Shown here: positions 31,299 through 40,419 of the stretch, one piece after another
How positions within the stretch are numbered: the first letter of the stretch is position 1
Layout of the letters: the number at the start of each line of letters is the position of its first letter
Origin: an uncultured delta proteobacterium
Lineage (GTDB): Bacteria; Desulfobacterota; Binatia; UBA9968
NCBI GenBank assembly: GCA_963727625.1
Contig: CAVSHR010000004.1
Location: 192,001 to 256,000 of the forward strand
DNA: 64,000 nt
Direction of reading: 5' to 3'
The notes under the pieces: generated by a model
What the model was told of the DNA's origin: nothing
The model's input: only the letters and a program-made list of their open reading frames with translations
Databases searched by the model: none
Position numbers and translations under genes: made by a program

Positions 31299-32293
31299 TT
31301 TATTTGACATTGAGTCTTCTCCACTGATACGGTGCCGGCATGGCGCGAAAGCCCCGAGTCGAGTTTGACGGCGCCTTCTACCACGTCATCGTACGCGGTA
31401 ACCAGCGCCAGAGGACCTTTCACGACGAGCACGACCGCCAGAGCTACCTCCAACGCATCGAGTACTATCGCCAGCGCTACGGCTTTCGGCTCTATGCTTA
31501 CGTCTTGATGGCCAACCACGTCCACATCCTGATCCAGACCAAGCGCGTTGGACTGTCCAAGATCATGCAGGGGATCCAAGGAAGCTACACCCAGATATTC
31601 AACCGCCGCCACCGCAAGGTCGGCCACCTGTTTCAAGGCCGCTACAAGGCGATCCTCTGTGACCGCGACGCCTACCTGCTTGAACTGGTGCGCTATATCC
31701 ATCTCAATCCGGCTCGATTGAAAGTCCCCGAGAATCCGTGGCGCTATCGCTGGAGCAGCCACGGGGCGTATCTGGGCAAACCGGCTGCCGTCAAAGTCGA
31801 CACCGAAGCAACGCTTGGCCAGTTTGGCTCGACCCTGGGAGCCGCCCGGCGGGGGTACCAGAGGTTTATCGAAGACGGGTTCAAACAGGGGCATAACGAA
31901 AAGTACTATGAGACCATCGACCAGCGCTTTTTGGGTGAAGAGCGATTTTTAAGCAAGGTGGCAGAGCGTAGCGAAGCCAGAGAAGTTGAGATAAGGGGAA
32001 ATAAAGTGAGCTTTGCCCGGCTGCTCGAAGCGATTGCACAAGCCCACGATGTGAAAAGCGAGGTATTGCTGCACGTCGGGCGGCAGCGTCGATGGGTGGC
32101 CATGAGAGCGCAGCTGGTGTACCTGGCACGGCAACGGTGTGGACTGACGACGAAGGAACTAGGGCGGCGGCTGCATCGCGATGCGTCCATGATCAGCCGT
32201 CTCTATGCACGGTACGAGACGCATCGGGACGAGCCGACCGAGAAGAGACTCGCACGAATGTTGGCTAAATAGTCAATACTCAGGCCTGACACC
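31278..32293 (+). mobile_element. TIR-flanked HUH (RAYT-like) tyrosine transposase element
   Basis: Perfect 18-bp inverted repeats GTCAGGCCTGAGTATTGA (31281-31298 and 32273-32290) with outer GGGGTCAG / GGTGTCAG ends. Confidence 0.85.
31340..32272 (+). CDS. REP-associated-type (Y1/HUH) tyrosine transposase with C-terminal HTH
   Basis: YHVIVRGN, YVLMANHVH (HUH), GHLFQGRYKA, RYIHLNP (catalytic Tyr), YRWSS; C-terminal helix-turn-helix-like region. Confidence 0.92.
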   Translation: MARKPRVEFDGAFYHVIVRGNQRQRTFHDEHDRQSYLQRIEYYRQRYGFRLYAYVLMANHVHILIQTKRVGLSKIMQGIQGSYTQIFNRRHRKVGHLFQGRYKAILCDRDAYLLELVRYIHLNPARLKVPENPWRYRWSSHGAYLGKPAAVKVDTEATLGQFGSTLGAARRGYQRFIEDGFKQGHNEKYYETIDQRFLGEERFLSKVAERSEAREVEIRGNKVSFARLLEAIAQAHDVKSEVLLHVGRQRRWVAMRAQLVYLARQRCGLTTKELGRRLHRDASMISRLYARYETHRDEPTEKRLARMLAK

Positions 32294-32752
32294 AGATCCC
32301 TCGCTGAGCGACTCTGATGCCCTCTTCACGGCATCGCCCGGATCATCGAAGCGCAGCGCGGTTTCATAAAGCTTATTGCCGCACTTCTCACAGGGCCAGA
32401 TGAAGCGGTCCATTTCCGCCCTGCTGCGCTTGCGTTCAACGACGAAGGTCCAGGAACCGTCGGCGCGGCGGGGCGAATGCGGGACATGGCCCGGCATGAG
32501 GAATAAATCTCCCGCCTTAAGGACCGCAAGATCCGGTTTGCCGCCGATAAAATAATGCAAGTTGAGCTCGCCTTCGAGCTGATAAAAAATTTCGTCGCCG
32601 GGGTTGAGGTGAAAATCTTTGCGCCGGTTGGGCCCGCGGGTAACGAAGGCGATGAAATCGGAATCCTGCCAGATCACCCGGCGCTGCCCCCAGCTGCCGC
32701 GATTTTCATCGATCCAATTTTGCAAGTTAAAGCCTTTTAAATGTGGAAACAT
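32273..32752 (-). CDS. nbaC: 3-hydroxyanthranilate 3,4-dioxygenase copy 2, C-terminally truncated by the TIR (possible pseudogene)
   Basis: 18 differences from copy 1 over the first 149 aa (manual count); lacks the second CxxC; tail GVRPEY* is encoded by the TIR. Confidence 0.75.
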   Translation of the reverse strand: MFPHLKGFNLQNWIDENRGSWGQRRVIWQDSDFIAFVTRGPNRRKDFHLNPGDEIFYQLEGELNLHYFIGGKPDLAVLKAGDLFLMPGHVPHSPRRADGSWTFVVERKRSRAEMDRFIWPCEKCGNKLYETALRFDDPGDAVKRASESLSEGSGVRPEY

Positions 32753-32980: not shown

Positions 32981-33316
32981 CTCAAATCAATCGCGCCGGT
33001 GATCGCGATTCGTGGCAATAATGATCGGGACCCTTGGGCAAAAATCTTCCCCGACGTTTTGAATCTGCGGATCAATGGCGTCAAGATTCACGTTATCCAC
33101 GACCTCCATGATATGGAGACCGATCCACTCGCCGGCGGCTTTAAATTGGTCGTAAGCGGCCACTCGCACAAGCCGAACGTGATCAAAAGAGCGGGAGTTC
33201 TCTTCATCAACCCCGGCAGCGCCGGCCCGCGCCGGTTCAAATTGCCGGTGACGGTAGCCCGGTTAAAGATTGACAGCAAAAATCTTAAGGCAAGAATCGT
33301 CGAATTAAAGATTTAG
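32819..33316 (+). CDS. Metallophosphoesterase (YfcE/MJ0936 family)
   Basis: ISDTH, HAGD, RGNND, GHSH and NPGSAG calcineurin-like motifs. Confidence 0.9.
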   Translation: MFTGKNQRLSLKSGHVGLISDTHGLVRPEACAALQGSEVILHAGDIGKPEVLMSLKSIAPVIAIRGNNDRDPWAKIFPDVLNLRINGVKIHVIHDLHDMETDPLAGGFKLVVSGHSHKPNVIKRAGVLFINPGSAGPRRFKLPVTVARLKIDSKNLKARIVELKI

Positions 33317-33366
33317 GCGAACTTTATTGACTTTGATTGCGTCCCACGATAATTAATCAAGAGAAA

Positions 33367-33399
33367 CCTTTTAACCCGATCCTGTGAGATTGGAAAAGG
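33367..33399 (+). promoter_or_regulatory. PyrR-binding stem-loop (pyr attenuator)
   Basis: CCTTTT-AACCCGATCCTGTGAGATTGG-AAAAGG resembles the ARUCCNGNGAGGYU PyrR loop, directly upstream of a terminator and pyrR. Confidence 0.75.
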
Positions 33400-33437
33400 C
33401 TCCATGAAAAATCTAATTCGACAAATAATTTGTGCTC

Positions 33438-33473
33438 AAAGACCCTCTCGGTAGGCCGGGAGGGTCTTTTTTT
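33438..33473 (+). terminator. Leader (attenuator) terminator upstream of pyrR
   Basis: AAAGACCCTCTCGG-TAGG-CCGGGAGGGTCTTT followed by a T-tract. Confidence 0.85.
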
Positions 33474-33477
33474 ATCC

Positions 33478-34035
33478 ATGGTGGACGAAAAACAAATCGT
33501 ATTGGAGCAATCTGAACTGGGCCGGGCGATCGGCCGGATGGCGCATGAGATCATTGAAAAGTGTGTTGATCCGGACCAACTGGCGTTGATCGGCATTCGC
33601 TCGCGGGGCGTTCATCTGGCACGACGGCTGGCGCGGCGCATCGGCGAGCTGGGTAAACCGATGCCGCCGGTAGGCGTCATCGACGTGACACCGTTTCGCG
33701 ACGATCGGGCGCAGGGCGAAACCGCCGCTCCAGCTACCGGCGTCGAGATCTCGACGCCGGTGGATGAAAAGACCGTGGTCTTGATCGACGACGTGATCTA
33801 TCGAGGCCGTACCGTTCGCGCCGCAATGGAGGCAATCGAACGATTGGGCCAGCCCAAGCGGATTTGCGTCGCCGTGTTGATCGACCGCGGCGCCCGGGAG
33901 CTGCCGATCCGCGCTGATATCGTCGGCAAGAATCTCGACGCCGGCGACGGCTATCGGGTGAACGTGCGTTTACAAGAAGTGGACGGCATCGATCAAGTAA
34001 CGTTGTCGAATTGGCAAGGGCAAAGCGGAAGTTAA
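33478..34035 (+). CDS. pyrR: Pyrimidine operon regulator / uracil phosphoribosyltransferase PyrR
   Basis: RAIGRMAHEI, GIRSRG, DVTPFRDD, VVLIDDVIYRGRT, LIDRGARELPIRAD. Confidence 0.92.
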   Translation: MVDEKQIVLEQSELGRAIGRMAHEIIEKCVDPDQLALIGIRSRGVHLARRLARRIGELGKPMPPVGVIDVTPFRDDRAQGETAAPATGVEISTPVDEKTVVLIDDVIYRGRTVRAAMEAIERLGQPKRICVAVLIDRGARELPIRADIVGKNLDAGDGYRVNVRLQEVDGIDQVTLSNWQGQSGS

Positions 34036-34052: not shown

Positions 34053-36002
34053 ATGCGCAGTCTTATTTCCATCGCCGATTTGACCAACGACGAAATTGAA
34101 GAAATTTTTTCGTTGGCGGACAACGCCGATCAATTGCGCGCGGCCAAGGCCGCCAGCGGGCAGATCATGGCGACACTTTTTTACGAGCCGAGCACGCGGA
34201 CCCGCTTATCTTTCGAGTCGGCGATGCAACGCTTGGGCGGTTCCGTGATCAGCTGTTCGGATATGAAAGCTTCGTCCACCGCCAAGGGTGAAACGGTTGC
34301 GGATACCGCGAAGGTGGTTTCAAGTTACGCCGATGTTTTGGTGGTGCGCCACAACTGGGACGGCGCGGTCCAGGCGATGGCTGAACATGCCGACGTGCCG
34401 GTGATCAACGCCGGGGATGGCGGCCATGAGCATCCGACACAGACTTTGTGCGATCTGTATACCTTGCGCAAGGAAAAAGGCGCGCTTAAAGGACTCACCG
34501 TGGTGGTATGCGGTGATCTCAAAAACGGCCGGACGATCCATTCGCTGGTGTTTGCCCTAGCGCGCTTCGGCGCCAACGTGGTTGCGTTAGCGGCTAACGG
34601 TATGGCGTTGCCGCAGTATGTCATCGAACGATTGGAGCGGGAGTATGACTACTCTCTGGCGCCGATGGCATCGGACGATCTGAGTGCCGTGGTGACGGAG
34701 ACCGACGCGCTTTATCTGACGCCCAAACAGCCGCACCAGCTCGCGCTTTTTACTCAGGTGGATCAGGTGATTCAGTCGCGCTTAAATAGCATAGCTAGCG
34801 GCTTGCGCTACGACGCCTTTTACATGACTCGCAAGCAAAAGGAGCGCATGAAGGAGGGCACCACCGACAGCAGTTACCCGACCATCGGCGCGAAATTTCT
34901 GCGCGAGCAGCGTTTTCAAGACACCGTGGTGATGCATCCGCTGCCGCGAGTCGACGAGCTTTCGCCGGAAGTTGATAAAGACCGGCGCGGCATCTATTTC
35001 AAGCAGGCCGCCTACGGCGTGCCGGTGCGCATGGCCTTGCTCAAGTTTCTCTTCGATCGGCGTGAGGAGAGACCGAGCGTTAAAAATAGCCGTGCCACCT
35101 CGTACGAAAGCCCGGATCCGATCGGCCCGTTATGCCGCAATCCGAATTGTGTGACGCTCAAGGAGCCGGCGTCGAGCGCCGAGCGCTTCGAGATCCTCAC
35201 GCTCGGCCAAGCCGATGCGTTGATTTTGGCCTGCGCTTATTGCGATCATCGCTTTAAAATCCAGATTGCCGGCAACGCCAAGTTAAAGCGCTACGGGGCT
35301 TTCGATGCCGCTCTGGCGCCGGCCCTCGGTGAATGGCTCAAAGACGGCGAGTTGGCGCTGTTCGACTCGATCAAGAAAGCCGAAGAGTTGGGTTACGAGC
35401 CTTTCAAAAGCGGGCCGCAACGGGTACTGATGGGCGGCGGCGAGATTCAAAGCGCTTTGGCGGAAATGAGCGGGCAGATCTTGCGCGATTGCCGCGACCC
35501 GGATCGTTTGCTGATTCTCGGCGTGCGCAGCGTCGGCTCCTATTTAGCGCAGCGCCTCGCCGCGGAAATTGAGAAGCGGGACCAGCGCAAGCCGGAATTG
35601 GCCGAAATCGAGATCTACGGCTCGGGAGATGGAATCCGTAGACTATCGCCGAGCGATCCGGAAGCGCCGGCGCTGAATTTGAAAGACCGCGAGATCATTC
35701 TCGTCGACGACGTTATCTATACCGGTCGAACGGTCAAGAGCGCGCTGAACATTATTTTTCGCCTCGGACGGCCCCATTCGGTGCGGCTCGCGGTGTTGAT
35801 TGACCGCGGCCACCGCGAAGTGCCGGTGAAGCCCAATTATGTCGGTAAACATATTCCCAGCGCCGAGCAGGATCGCGTGCGCGTCAAGTTGCGTGAGATC
35901 GATCCTGAAAAGAGCGATCAAGCGGTCATCTATTCGATCATCAAGCCGGGCGAAGAATCGCACCGGCTGGCGCGCAAACCGGATCTGAGTGCGACCAAGT
36001 AG
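34053..36002 (+). CDS. pyrB: Aspartate carbamoyltransferase fused to a PyrI-type Zn domain and a PyrR-like PRT domain
   Basis: [50 protein letters not shown]; then [13 protein letters not shown]; then [25 protein letters not shown]; one uninterrupted frame. Confidence 0.9.
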
Positions 36003-36006
36003 AGCT

Positions 36007-37173
36007 ATGAAAGCGATTTTAGCACTGGCCGATGGGCGAATCTTTGACGGCTTGTCATTCGGCGCCGTCGGCGAGACGGTCGGCGAGGTTGTTTTCAACA
36101 CCAGCATGACCGGTTACCAAGAGATTCTCACCGATCCATCCTACGAAGGCCAACTGGTGGCCATGACCTATCCACAGATCGGCAACGTCGGCGTCAATCC
36201 CGAGGACGTCGAGTCGCGCGGGCCGTTCATGAAAGGTTTTATCGTTAAGGAATACACGTCGCAGCCAAGCAACTGGCGCGCTACACAACCGCTCCATTCA
36301 TACATGGAAGTCAATGGCGTCGTCGGCATCCAAGGCGTCGACACGCGCTCTTTGGTGCGCCACCTACGCGATCATGGCGCCCAAGAAGCGGCGATTTCGA
36401 CGGTGACGGAAAATCCCGAAAAGCTTGTCGCCAAAGCCAAAGCTTCGCCGGGACTTATCGGCAAAGATCTCGTGCGTAATGTGACCTGCGCCGAAGCCTA
36501 TGATTGGAATCAAGGCGGATGGCAGCTGGAAGGCGGCTACAAAGAACGGGACGGAGCAAAACCGGCAGGAAAGCGCAGAGGCAAGGGCAGCTTTATCTCG
36601 CCGGCGTATTTCGTCGTCGCCTATGACTACGGCATAAAGTACAACATCCTGCGCAAACTCGCCGAGGCCGGCTGCCGTGTCAAAGTGGTGCCCGCTGCCA
36701 CTCCGGCCGAGGATGTTTTGGCAATGAAGCCGGATGGAATCTTTCTTTCCAACGGCCCCGGCGATCCTGATGCCGTGCCGTACGCCAAGGAAAACGTCGA
36801 AAAGCTGATCGGCAAAAAGCCAATCTTCGGCATCTGCCTGGGTCATCAGATTATGGGGCTCGCGCTCGGCGGCAAGACATACAAGCTCAAGTTCGGCCAC
36901 CACGGTGCCAATCAACCGGTGATGGATTTAACCACGCGCAAAGTCGAGGTCACCTCGCAGAATCACGGTTTCGCGGTAGATGCCGATTCACTCAAAGGCG
37001 CCGTGGAAATCACGCACTTGAATTTGAACGACAACACCGTCGAGGGGCTGGAGCATCGCGAGCTGCCGATCTTTTCGGTGCAGTATCATCCGGAATCATC
37101 GCCCGGGCCGCATGACGCCGATTACCTGTTCAAGCGATTTACCGACCTAATGGCAAAACAAAAGAGCACGTAA
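36007..37173 (+). CDS. carA: Carbamoyl-phosphate synthase small subunit
   Basis: [50 protein letters not shown]. Confidence 0.97.
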
Positions 37174-37179
37174 GGATCC

Positions 37180-40419
<3,240 letters not shown>

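Follow-up and report, generated by a model that had tools for sequence, protein, structure and literature searches.

How is an aspartate transcarbamoylase (ATCase) controlled when its chain carries the zinc (Zn) domain of the regulatory protein PyrI, lacks the PyrI allosteric domain and ends in a domain of the PyrR family? ATCase is a classic model of allosteric regulation, and the question is raised by a single gene of a soil bacterium, an uncultured delta proteobacterium (Binatia; UBA9968; assembly GCA_963727625.1). We analysed positions 192,001-256,000 of the forward strand of contig CAVSHR010000004.1; this whole stretch of 64,000 nucleotides (nt) is called the window, and all positions are numbered within it. 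The gene lies in a single open frame on the plus strand, from 34011 (TTG) or 34053 (ATG) to 36002, and the ATG start gives a protein of 649 amino acids (aa), which matches the length of its homologues. Along the chain follow a PyrB catalytic chain, a four-cysteine Zn domain of the PyrI_C type, an adaptor of about 50 aa with a moderate likeness to Ada, and a phosphoribosyltransferase (PRT) domain of the PyrR family. We consider the chances evenly balanced that this PRT domain acts as a ligand-sensing regulatory module, which would take the role of the PyrI N-terminal domain and be coupled to the enzyme via the Zn domain and the adaptor. The gene and its parts are as follows (pLDDT, predicted local distance difference test).

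34053..36002, plus strand: fusion gene, 649 codons and stop
34053..35057, plus strand: ATCase catalytic chain, residues 1-335 (Pfam, structure comparisons, catalytic motifs)
34698..34805, plus strand: insertion of about 36 residues within the catalytic chain, about residues 216-251 (alignment to E. coli ATCase)
35091..35261, plus strand: PyrI_C-type Zn domain, residues 347-403, with Cys361, Cys366, Cys394 and Cys397
35262..35420, plus strand: adaptor, residues 404-456, beta-alpha-beta-alpha, conserved, without cysteines
35421..35948, plus strand: PyrR-family PRT-fold domain, residues 457-632 (Pfam, NCBIfam, structure-sequence comparison)
35949..35999, plus strand: C-terminal tail, residues 633-649, conservation 2-4 of 10, pLDDT below 50

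Domain matches were judged against Pfam gathering scores and NCBIfam curated cut-offs. The catalytic chain is covered by OTCace_N (residues 2-139, 171.8 bits, cut-off 29.9) and OTCace (residues 146-332, 74.3 bits, cut-off 29.4) and passes the ATCase model TIGR00670 (296.8 bits against 236.95). PyrI_C (PF02748) matches residues 361-403 with 27.4 bits (cut-off 23.4), or 30.9 bits when scanned alone. Pribosyltran covers residues 465-599 with 58.4 bits, over its gathering score, and the PyrR model NF003549 covers residues 457-620 with 145.2 bits, or 148.5 bits in a second scan, against a cut-off of 138; this score is barely over the cut-off, ordinary PyrRs of the phylum reaching 170-250. An earlier note, made from the sequence of this DNA alone, had described one frame of about 650 aa with the catalytic motifs STRT, HPTQ and MHPLPR, a four-cysteine module of the PyrI type and a C-terminal PyrR/PRT domain with an intact loop for phosphoribosyl pyrophosphate (PRPP). 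All of these are present: STRT at residues 47-50, HPTQ at 127-130, MHPLPR at 294-299, CRNPNC at 361-366, CAYC at 394-397 and the PRPP motif at 548-560, and the coordinates it had given for the parts agree with the Pfam and NCBIfam boundaries to within a few codons. It had called the protein a triple fusion. The three parts that it named stand; the count does not, since residues 404-456, taken for a linker, form a fourth piece. It had also overlooked the pyrR gene and leader upstream, the insertion of about 36 aa in the catalytic chain and a family of related proteins that end without a PRT domain.

The fusion is real and old, and does not stem from an assembly error. Among species-representative genomes, a scan gave 70 fusion loci with identities of 55-93%; the single frame is intact in 63 of them, contig ends cut five, and the frame is broken in two (L040 and L044). 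The earlier note had proposed to look for homologues that share the fusion and for a stop or frameshift splitting the domains. Such homologues thus exist in assembled genomes, the frame in the window is intact, and breaks were met in only those two related loci. A word-index search listed at least 120 homologue clusters (592-665 aa, 76-100% identity), all with OTCace_N, OTCace and Pribosyltran; by our own count PyrI_C is found in 99 of 120 clusters among the matches listed. Hundreds of fusion clusters occur in soil, sediment and groundwater metagenomes, where they are annotated as "catalytic subunit". No sequencing run contained more than 0.10 of the sampled words, and none of RNA was among those listed; the contigs there were 100-430 nt long, none ran across the gene and no indels were reported, so that the runs are uninformative on the junctions and on expression.

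Three candidates for other arrangements were rejected. The seemingly separate Zn-PRT chains P0270 (313 aa) and P0128 (327 aa) come from contigs of only 1.1-1.3 kb, and the P0270 cluster has a member of 647 aa. The apparently split gene of genome G174 has a 313-aa frame that runs into the end of its contig; the PyrB half lies on a different one. P0130 (583 aa), which looked like a fusion with a different appended module, is a frameshifted copy. A few pieces of 180-290 aa were also seen on long ENA contigs.

The genome has two OTCace_N genes only, the fusion and an argF that adjoins argD, and the fusion is the only predicted ATCase of the genome. The PyrI allosteric domain (PF01948) has no match in the protein, none in the genome, which is 98.45% complete, and none in 151 sampled genomes of the class; the same search, run on 14 reference genomes as a control, detected it in 7. 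The earlier note's statement that this domain is absent is thus borne out. Its further wording, that the PyrR domain stands "in place of" the allosteric domain, holds as far as the absence goes. It does not hold as an exchange in place, for the relatives have no PyrI at all and the order, Zn domain and then sensor candidate, is the reverse of that in PyrI.

The catalytic chain is nearest to the archaeal and enteric ATCases that are partnered by PyrI (M. jannaschii 2rgw, 4e-73; P. abyssi 1ml4, 4e-72; E. coli, about 1e-62), with a Foldseek template modelling score of 0.85 normalised to the target. The catalytic residues of the E. coli chain we take to be S-T-R-T-R, the lysine of the 80s loop, R105, H134, Q137, R167, R229, Q231 and H-P-L-P-R. 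By alignment to E. coli chains their counterparts are S47, T48, R49, T50, K78, R99, H127, Q130, R160, R260, Q262 and residues 295-299, and they are near-invariant across 77 sequences. Residues 221-234 of the E. coli chain align twice, to residues 216-229, a degenerate copy, and to residues 252-265, which hold the canonical T-R-K-Q-K-E-R; this places the insertion immediately before the R229 and Q231 equivalents and the 240s loop. It is situated in the aspartate domain, and its opening segment repeats, in degenerate form, the strand with the T-R-x-Q motif. Its first part shows strong conservation within the family, and residues 227-246 have a pLDDT below 50 in the AlphaFold2 model.

The four cysteines of the Zn domain are invariant in 77 of 77 aligned sequences. 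When folded alone, the domain matches residues 98-146 of the PyrI chains 2be7_D and 2yww_B with VIA Z scores of 5.7 and 5.6 and 29-31% identity, and the top 24 rows listed by Foldseek are all ATCase regulatory chains (root mean square deviation, rmsd, 1.2-2.3 A; E about 0.1-0.6). The module is thus PyrI_C-like by sequence and, in its predicted structure, by fold with two aligners, as the earlier note had it from the cysteines. In E. coli ATCase the Zn domain of PyrI is the part that touches the catalytic chain and docks the regulatory chain onto it.

Conservation of the adaptor is strong (W, F, K, A, E, Y and P do not vary among 46 sequences), and its predicted fold is confident (pLDDT about 80-87). 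Its best structural matches are to the E. coli Ada protein: 1u8b_A with Z 4.8 (rmsd 2.0 A over 45 residues), below the caution level of Z 8 given by the tool, and 1eyf_A with Z 4.5; both have an rmsd of 2.0-2.1 A over 45-48 residues, and the next rows reach at most 3.2. Ada is absent among the Foldseek rows shown, and residues 404-456 have no Pfam match even at E<=10. None of the four cysteines of the N-terminal Zn site of Ada is present, nor is any other cysteine in the segment, and the protein atlas gave no lead for it (best score 0.75). The predicted likeness to the N-terminal domain of Ada is therefore moderate and comes from one aligner.

The PRT domain resembles solved PyrRs at 3e-34 to 5e-32 and is 36% identical to the stand-alone PyrR encoded next to it. 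We set 67 fused domains against 64 operon PyrRs taken from these loci, using Bacillus numbering through alignments to solved PyrRs. Common to both forms are the loop that holds PRPP or a 5'-phosphate, in which D552, D553, V554, I555, G558 and T560 are at least 90% conserved, and the D-R-G-x-R-E...V-G-K block. Only the operon PyrRs have a near-invariant R-M-A-H-E-x-x-E-K helix, and their R-D-D flexible loop, invariant in all 64, is replaced by Y-G-S-G-D in the fused domains of the window's clade. At the helix-1 positions R19, H22 and R27 of B. subtilis, the operon PyrRs carry R (100%), H (97%) and K (80%), and the fused domains Q/E/D, E/R/G/A and D; the fused helix is variable or acidic, with a net charge of -2.7 against -0.3. 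A further 27 columns are at least 90% conserved in the fused domains and not in the operon PyrRs. Because of these columns and of the shorter paths within the clade (from the window to locus L010, 0.41 in the fused clade against 0.65 in the operon-PyrR clade), the fused domain is judged not to be decaying. The Y-G-S-G loop might resemble the flexible loop of 6-oxopurine PRTs such as Hpt; the candidate Hpt open reading frame (ORF) of the genome is a generic PRT beside a nicotinate PRT.

PyrR proteins are described as bifunctional uracil phosphoribosyltransferases (UPRTases) in the available part of a review, and the NCBIfam name says the same. The fused domain might accordingly be an active UPRTase, a salvage enzyme merely tethered to the de novo enzyme ATCase, with no coupling or with coupling only through substrate occupancy. 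The intact PRPP loop would suit such a bifunctional enzyme, as would the R-D-D loop that distant fusions have kept and the genome's lack of any Upp-type UPRTase over the cut-off. We regard it as unlikely, however, for the R-D-D loop is replaced in the window's clade and the same genome has two stand-alone PyrR paralogues with this loop that could supply the activity. Tethering alone also leaves the strict keeping of the Zn domain and adaptor unexplained. Nor does the lack of Upp discriminate, since it is not specific to fusion carriers: Upp-type enzymes occur in 13 of 151 class genomes (two genera), and in none of the fusion families and none of 12 of the 14 non-fusion families. PyrR-type proteins may be the usual UPRTase of the class.

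Besides the operon PyrR, the genome has a second stand-alone paralogue at G000:C2:356576-357100 (locus L076, 1489-2040, minus strand; 190 bits), which keeps the Y-R-D-D loop and has a different helix 1. By eye it adjoins an ORF like an M20-type amidohydrolase, and no PyrR RNA site lies nearby. This paralogue may be the UPRTase of the cell or a regulator of pyrimidine catabolism.

The fusion gene stands in a pyrimidine operon whose other elements are as follows.

33270..33297, plus strand: promoter-like site (TTGACA, 16 nt, AAGAAT), 10/12 consensus matches
33363..33475, plus strand: PyrR-binding RNA leader, Rfam RF00515, 57.5 bits (gathering score 54), full model 1-115
33478..34035, plus strand: stand-alone pyrR, 185 aa, NF003549 194.1 bits (cut-off 138)
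35989..37173, plus strand: carA, CPSase_sm_chain and GATase (Pfam)
37180..40419, plus strand: carB, 1079 aa, by eye from the translation

The promoter-like site is a consensus match only, the region holding 2 such sites against 3.5 expected from shuffles. The leader ends in an intrinsic-terminator hairpin at 33438-33469, with a 14-pair stem including 8 GC pairs, followed by a T-run (TTTTTTAT). The longest frame of the stand-alone pyrR begins within the leader, at TTG 33430, and its product matches solved PyrR structures at 1e-41 to 5e-47. The fusion gene starts 17 nt past this pyrR, and the GTG start of carA overlaps its 3' end by 14 nt (35989-36002), which suggests that ATCase and carbamoyl-phosphate synthetase may be translationally coupled. 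The pyrC gene is on another contig and does not follow the ATCase gene.

This order of pyrR leader, stand-alone pyrR, fusion and carA is invariable. Of the 70 loci, 67 have a PyrR ORF immediately before the fusion and the other three are cut by contig ends; carA lies downstream in all 59 loci with enough sequence. In 14 related loci tested for the leader, a single PyrR RNA site before pyrR reached the gathering score in 5, and the 6 misses that were re-tested all scored 50.7-53.2 bits; there is thus one site per locus in 11 of 11 loci with enough sensitivity.

The fused domain might be a tethered attenuator that has kept its binding to the pyr leader RNA, and through it ATCase would help to control its own operon by attenuation or at translation. 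It does score over the PyrR equivalog cut-off (145-148 against 138 bits), a PyrR RNA site is present in the operon, and the equivalents of R141 and K152, which reportedly have roles of their own in PyrR, are kept. We consider this very improbable all the same. Helix 1 is acidic and has lost the signature of the neighbouring PyrR, in which R20, H23, E24 and E27 are invariant; each locus has one RNA site, which precedes the stand-alone pyrR; and a canonical PyrR is kept in every locus with upstream sequence.

Further upstream, positions 31340-32272 hold a 310-aa ORF with an IS200-like Y1 transposase domain and a DnaA_C-like helix-turn-helix. Beyond this transposase-like ORF come a gene like 3-hydroxyanthranilate dioxygenase (32273-32752, minus strand) and a metallophosphoesterase (33316 being the end of its span from 32819).

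The sensor reading is strengthened by two features: the helix-1 and loop signatures are lost while the phosphate loop is retained, and the fusion strictly co-occurs with a separate canonical PyrR and its leader. According to the part of a review available to us, the RNA-binding form of PyrR is a dimer with bound uridine monophosphate (UMP) that uses a basic concave surface, guanosine monophosphate (GMP) antagonises this, and the ligands of the protein are UMP and uridine triphosphate (UTP) versus GMP and guanosine triphosphate (GTP). The fused PRT domain would no longer be an RNA-binding attenuator; it would be a small-molecule sensor for a 5'-phosphoribosyl ligand (UMP/UTP versus GMP/GTP, or PRPP) bound at the conserved phosphate loop. 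Occupancy of this site would be relayed through the adaptor and the Zn domain to the catalytic chain, and the only ATCase of the cell would be a self-contained regulated enzyme in one polypeptide. If the domain forms dimers like those of PyrR, it would also link two catalytic trimers, which is what the PyrI dimers do. The same protein family would then control the pathway twice, the stand-alone PyrR on the leader RNA and the fused domain on enzyme activity. The analysis shows the architecture, how well it is conserved, its gene neighbourhood, the lack of the PyrI N-terminal domain, and which residues are lost or retained; ligand binding and its specificity, dimerisation, signal transmission and the sign of the effect are what we infer here.

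A bridge between trimers need not sense anything. The PRT domain could be a structural scaffold that dimerises and joins two catalytic trimers while blind to ligands, like the inactive dihydroorotase (DHOase)-like subunit of some bacterial ATCases. Dodecameric ATCases with active or inactive DHOase are described in the available part of a review, the PyrR dimer is described in that of another, and no pyrC follows the ATCase gene of the window, whereas non-fusion relatives have pyrB and then pyrC. Still, the phosphate loop, which contacts the ligand, is near-invariant in the 67 fused domains and would be needless in a pure scaffold, and the comparison with the inactive subunit is an analogy only. 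We give this explanation a low probability.

Several observations weigh against the sensor role. The Zn domain and adaptor evidently work in proteins that have no PRT domain, and the PRT domain could be an addition that serves some other purpose: a rough count by motif puts the PyrB-Zn proteins without it at 44 or more of the best 150 representatives, compared with 3 full-length clusters that bear it. The R-D-D loop is still present in the distant fusions P0123, P0124 and L128-L130, so that its loss marks the window's clade rather than the architecture in general; at its origin the fused domain may have been a functional PyrR/UPRTase, and catalysis may be possible at present too. The arrangement of the domains is hinted at, and no more, by the AlphaFold2 predicted template modelling score of 0.74. 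The frame is broken in the 2 of 70 loci mentioned above, and 2 of the 46 class matches to the Zn-adaptor-PRT module (G235 and G326) contain TGA. The genome has an estimated contamination of 6.3%, though the gene sits on a contig of 1.65 Mb. Savacool and Switzer are said to have worked out, in 2002, the individual roles of the B. subtilis PyrR residues T18, R19, H22, R27, R141, R146 and K152; the review makes the general statement of a basic concave surface only. As for the two TGA codons, they are in frame, one each, at G235:C60:25558-26442 and G326:C4:2850-3704, and could represent sequencing error, a pseudogene or a recoded codon.

The distribution of the fusion bears on its origin. An ordinary PyrB of about 310 aa is found in almost all of 201 sampled genomes of the window's GTDB phylum. 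The Zn-adaptor-PRT module occurs in 46 of the 151 sampled class genomes, that of the window included; a 47th match (G303) was a plain PyrR and was excluded. By family the module is all or none: 5 of the 19 sampled families carry it (f1 8/8, f87 2/2, f89 1/1, f6 17/17, f91 17/17), and it was found in none of the other 14, among them f86 of the same order (0/8). The f6 count includes an unpublished genome, G282, and is 16/16 without it. The 70 fusion loci are nearly all in metagenome-assembled genomes (MAGs) labelled Candidatus Binatia or "Deltaproteobacteria".

Closely related fusions, P0121 among them, were also seen under the MAG labels Chloroflexota, Verrucomicrobiia, Candidatus Udaeobacter, Limnocylindrales and Candidatus Acidoferrales. 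The probable explanation is wrong labelling or binning of contigs that belong to this one lineage, gene transfer being the alternative.

Among the non-fusion relatives, G143, G076 and G110 have pyrR followed by a pyrB of about 300 aa of the PRK00856 type and then by pyrC (identified by a family model in G110; in G143 and G076 it was recognised by eye in the tails of the ORFs). In G332, of the same order as the window's genome, a bare PyrB of 310 aa is just 36% identical, lacks the insertion by alignment and is followed by pyrD. Since the relatives in the class are without PyrI and have an unrelated ATCase of this pyrR-pyrB-pyrC type, the fusion, judging from these genomes, was not born by swapping a resident PyrI N-terminal domain in place. 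By the same comparison, the PyrB-Zn gene as a whole and the usual ATCase of the class differ in kind.

In another genome of that order, G224 (f86; one contig, 99% complete), the sole OTCace_N match is argF, in an argD-argF-argG cluster (locus L091). No pyrB was found in G224 with the query used, though G332, of the same genus, has one.

The nearest relatives outside the clade are PyrB-Zn proteins, with or without the adaptor, that lack the PRT domain and are 39-52% identical over residues 2 to about 456. They are about 360-490 aa long, carry the labels Dehalococcoidia, SAR202 or Anaerolineales, are often annotated as "hypothetical protein" and have no allosteric domain (P0127-P0199 and others; G006:C352:6766-8121 and G036:C147:20417-21613). 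The insertion beside the 240s loop is common to this family and absent from ordinary PyrBs, and the adaptor motif recurs in the C-terminal tails of many of its members. In the PyrB tree the window's clade is a branch separate from these forms, with a support of 99 in the Shimodaira-Hasegawa-like approximate likelihood ratio test (SH-aLRT). In the PyrR tree the fused domains of the window's clade form one clade with a long stem (SH-aLRT 100); a second clade, that of the operon PyrRs (100), falls within the ordinary PyrRs. The two are not sisters, and the fused domain is thus no recent copy of its neighbour; by eye, the internal branching of both looks parallel. A word-index search for the closest stand-alone PyrR returned fragments of the fusion only. 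The distant lineage with P0123, P0124 and L128-L130 is 42-45% identical and has the same pyrR-fusion-carA layout; neither the PRT tree nor the PyrB tree gives P0123 and P0124 a supported placement, which leaves one origin or several.

The most far-reaching scheme is one to which we would give a little less than an even chance. A PyrR that has given up RNA binding would have been joined to ATCase by way of a PyrI Zn domain and an Ada-like adaptor, as an allosteric sensor of nucleotides or PRPP and a dimeric bridge between trimers, so that the pyrimidine/purine signal is read twice in one operon. The PyrB-Zn(-adaptor) family would be a further undescribed class of ATCase and the source of the fusion.

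In this ATCase the docking Zn domain has been kept, and an unrelated fold from the RNA-binding regulator of the pathway itself replaces the nucleotide-binding domain, which would amount to a natural domain-swap experiment. It would allow a test of how far signal transmission by the Zn domain depends on the sensor, and it would show a regulator that has moved from control at the RNA level to control at the enzyme level. The analysis also exposes a large PyrB-Zn family without an allosteric domain, often annotated as hypothetical. Should the PRT domain turn out to be no more than a UPRTase or a scaffold, what remains would be an unusual gene fusion.

Prokaryotic ATCases were grouped into three quaternary types in a 2015 survey of transcarbamylase architectures, and the terms "PyrR" and "phosphoribosyl" do not occur in the part of that survey available to us. 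We found no ATCase with a PyrR or PRT domain in the full-text literature searched; most subscription journals and the domain-architecture databases lay outside this search, and we therefore speak of an architecture that was not found rather than one that is absent. The earlier note, which knew of no description, is in agreement. Automated annotation already sees both halves in at least one record, by its JGI name ("ATCase catalytic subunit/pyrimidine operon attenuation...").

Of the known systems, the catalytic chain is closest to that of the E. coli and archaeal ATCases, in which two PyrB trimers are joined by three PyrI dimers. The four-cysteine Zn domain matches PyrI residues about 98-146 in sequence and fold, and the proposed logic is alike, with a nucleotide-binding domain that would act on the catalytic chain through the Zn domain. 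In contrast to these enzymes, the fusion is one polypeptide, has an extra Ada-like adaptor and an insertion of about 36 aa beside the 240s loop, and lacks the PyrI N-terminal allosteric domain. The PyrB-PyrI protein of Thermotoga maritima (NF009916), to which the earlier note had pointed and which the available part of a review cites from Chen et al. 1998, likewise has catalytic and regulatory parts in one chain. However, it contains a complete PyrI, with allosteric and Zn domains, whereas the fusion has no PyrI N-terminal domain and reaches only 90.5 bits with that model (cut-off 800), over residues 39-197.

The PyrB-Zn(-adaptor) proteins without a PRT domain share the catalytic subtype, the insertion, a Zn domain that immediately follows the catalytic chain and, in many cases, the adaptor motif, and differ in that the chain ends after the Zn domain or the adaptor. 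In DHOase-associated ATCases, as far as the accessible part of the review describes them, a protein of the pyrimidine pathway has likewise been recruited as a non-catalytic partner; there it is a DHOase homologue in a separate chain, here a PyrR homologue in the same chain. With the PyrR of Bacillus and its relatives the fused domain shares the PRPP loop and most core motifs, and the ligands known for PyrR from the same kind of source (UMP/UTP versus GMP/GTP) would suit the needs of an ATCase sensor. It differs from PyrR in lacking the helix-1 and R-D-D signatures, in its 27 newly constrained positions, in its place behind an enzyme and beside a canonical PyrR, and in its own long-stemmed clade. 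These comparisons suggest a regulated ATCase with a sensor docked through a Zn domain, as in the PyrI enzymes, in which the candidate sensor is a non-homologous PRT fold that follows the Zn domain, whereas that of PyrI precedes it.

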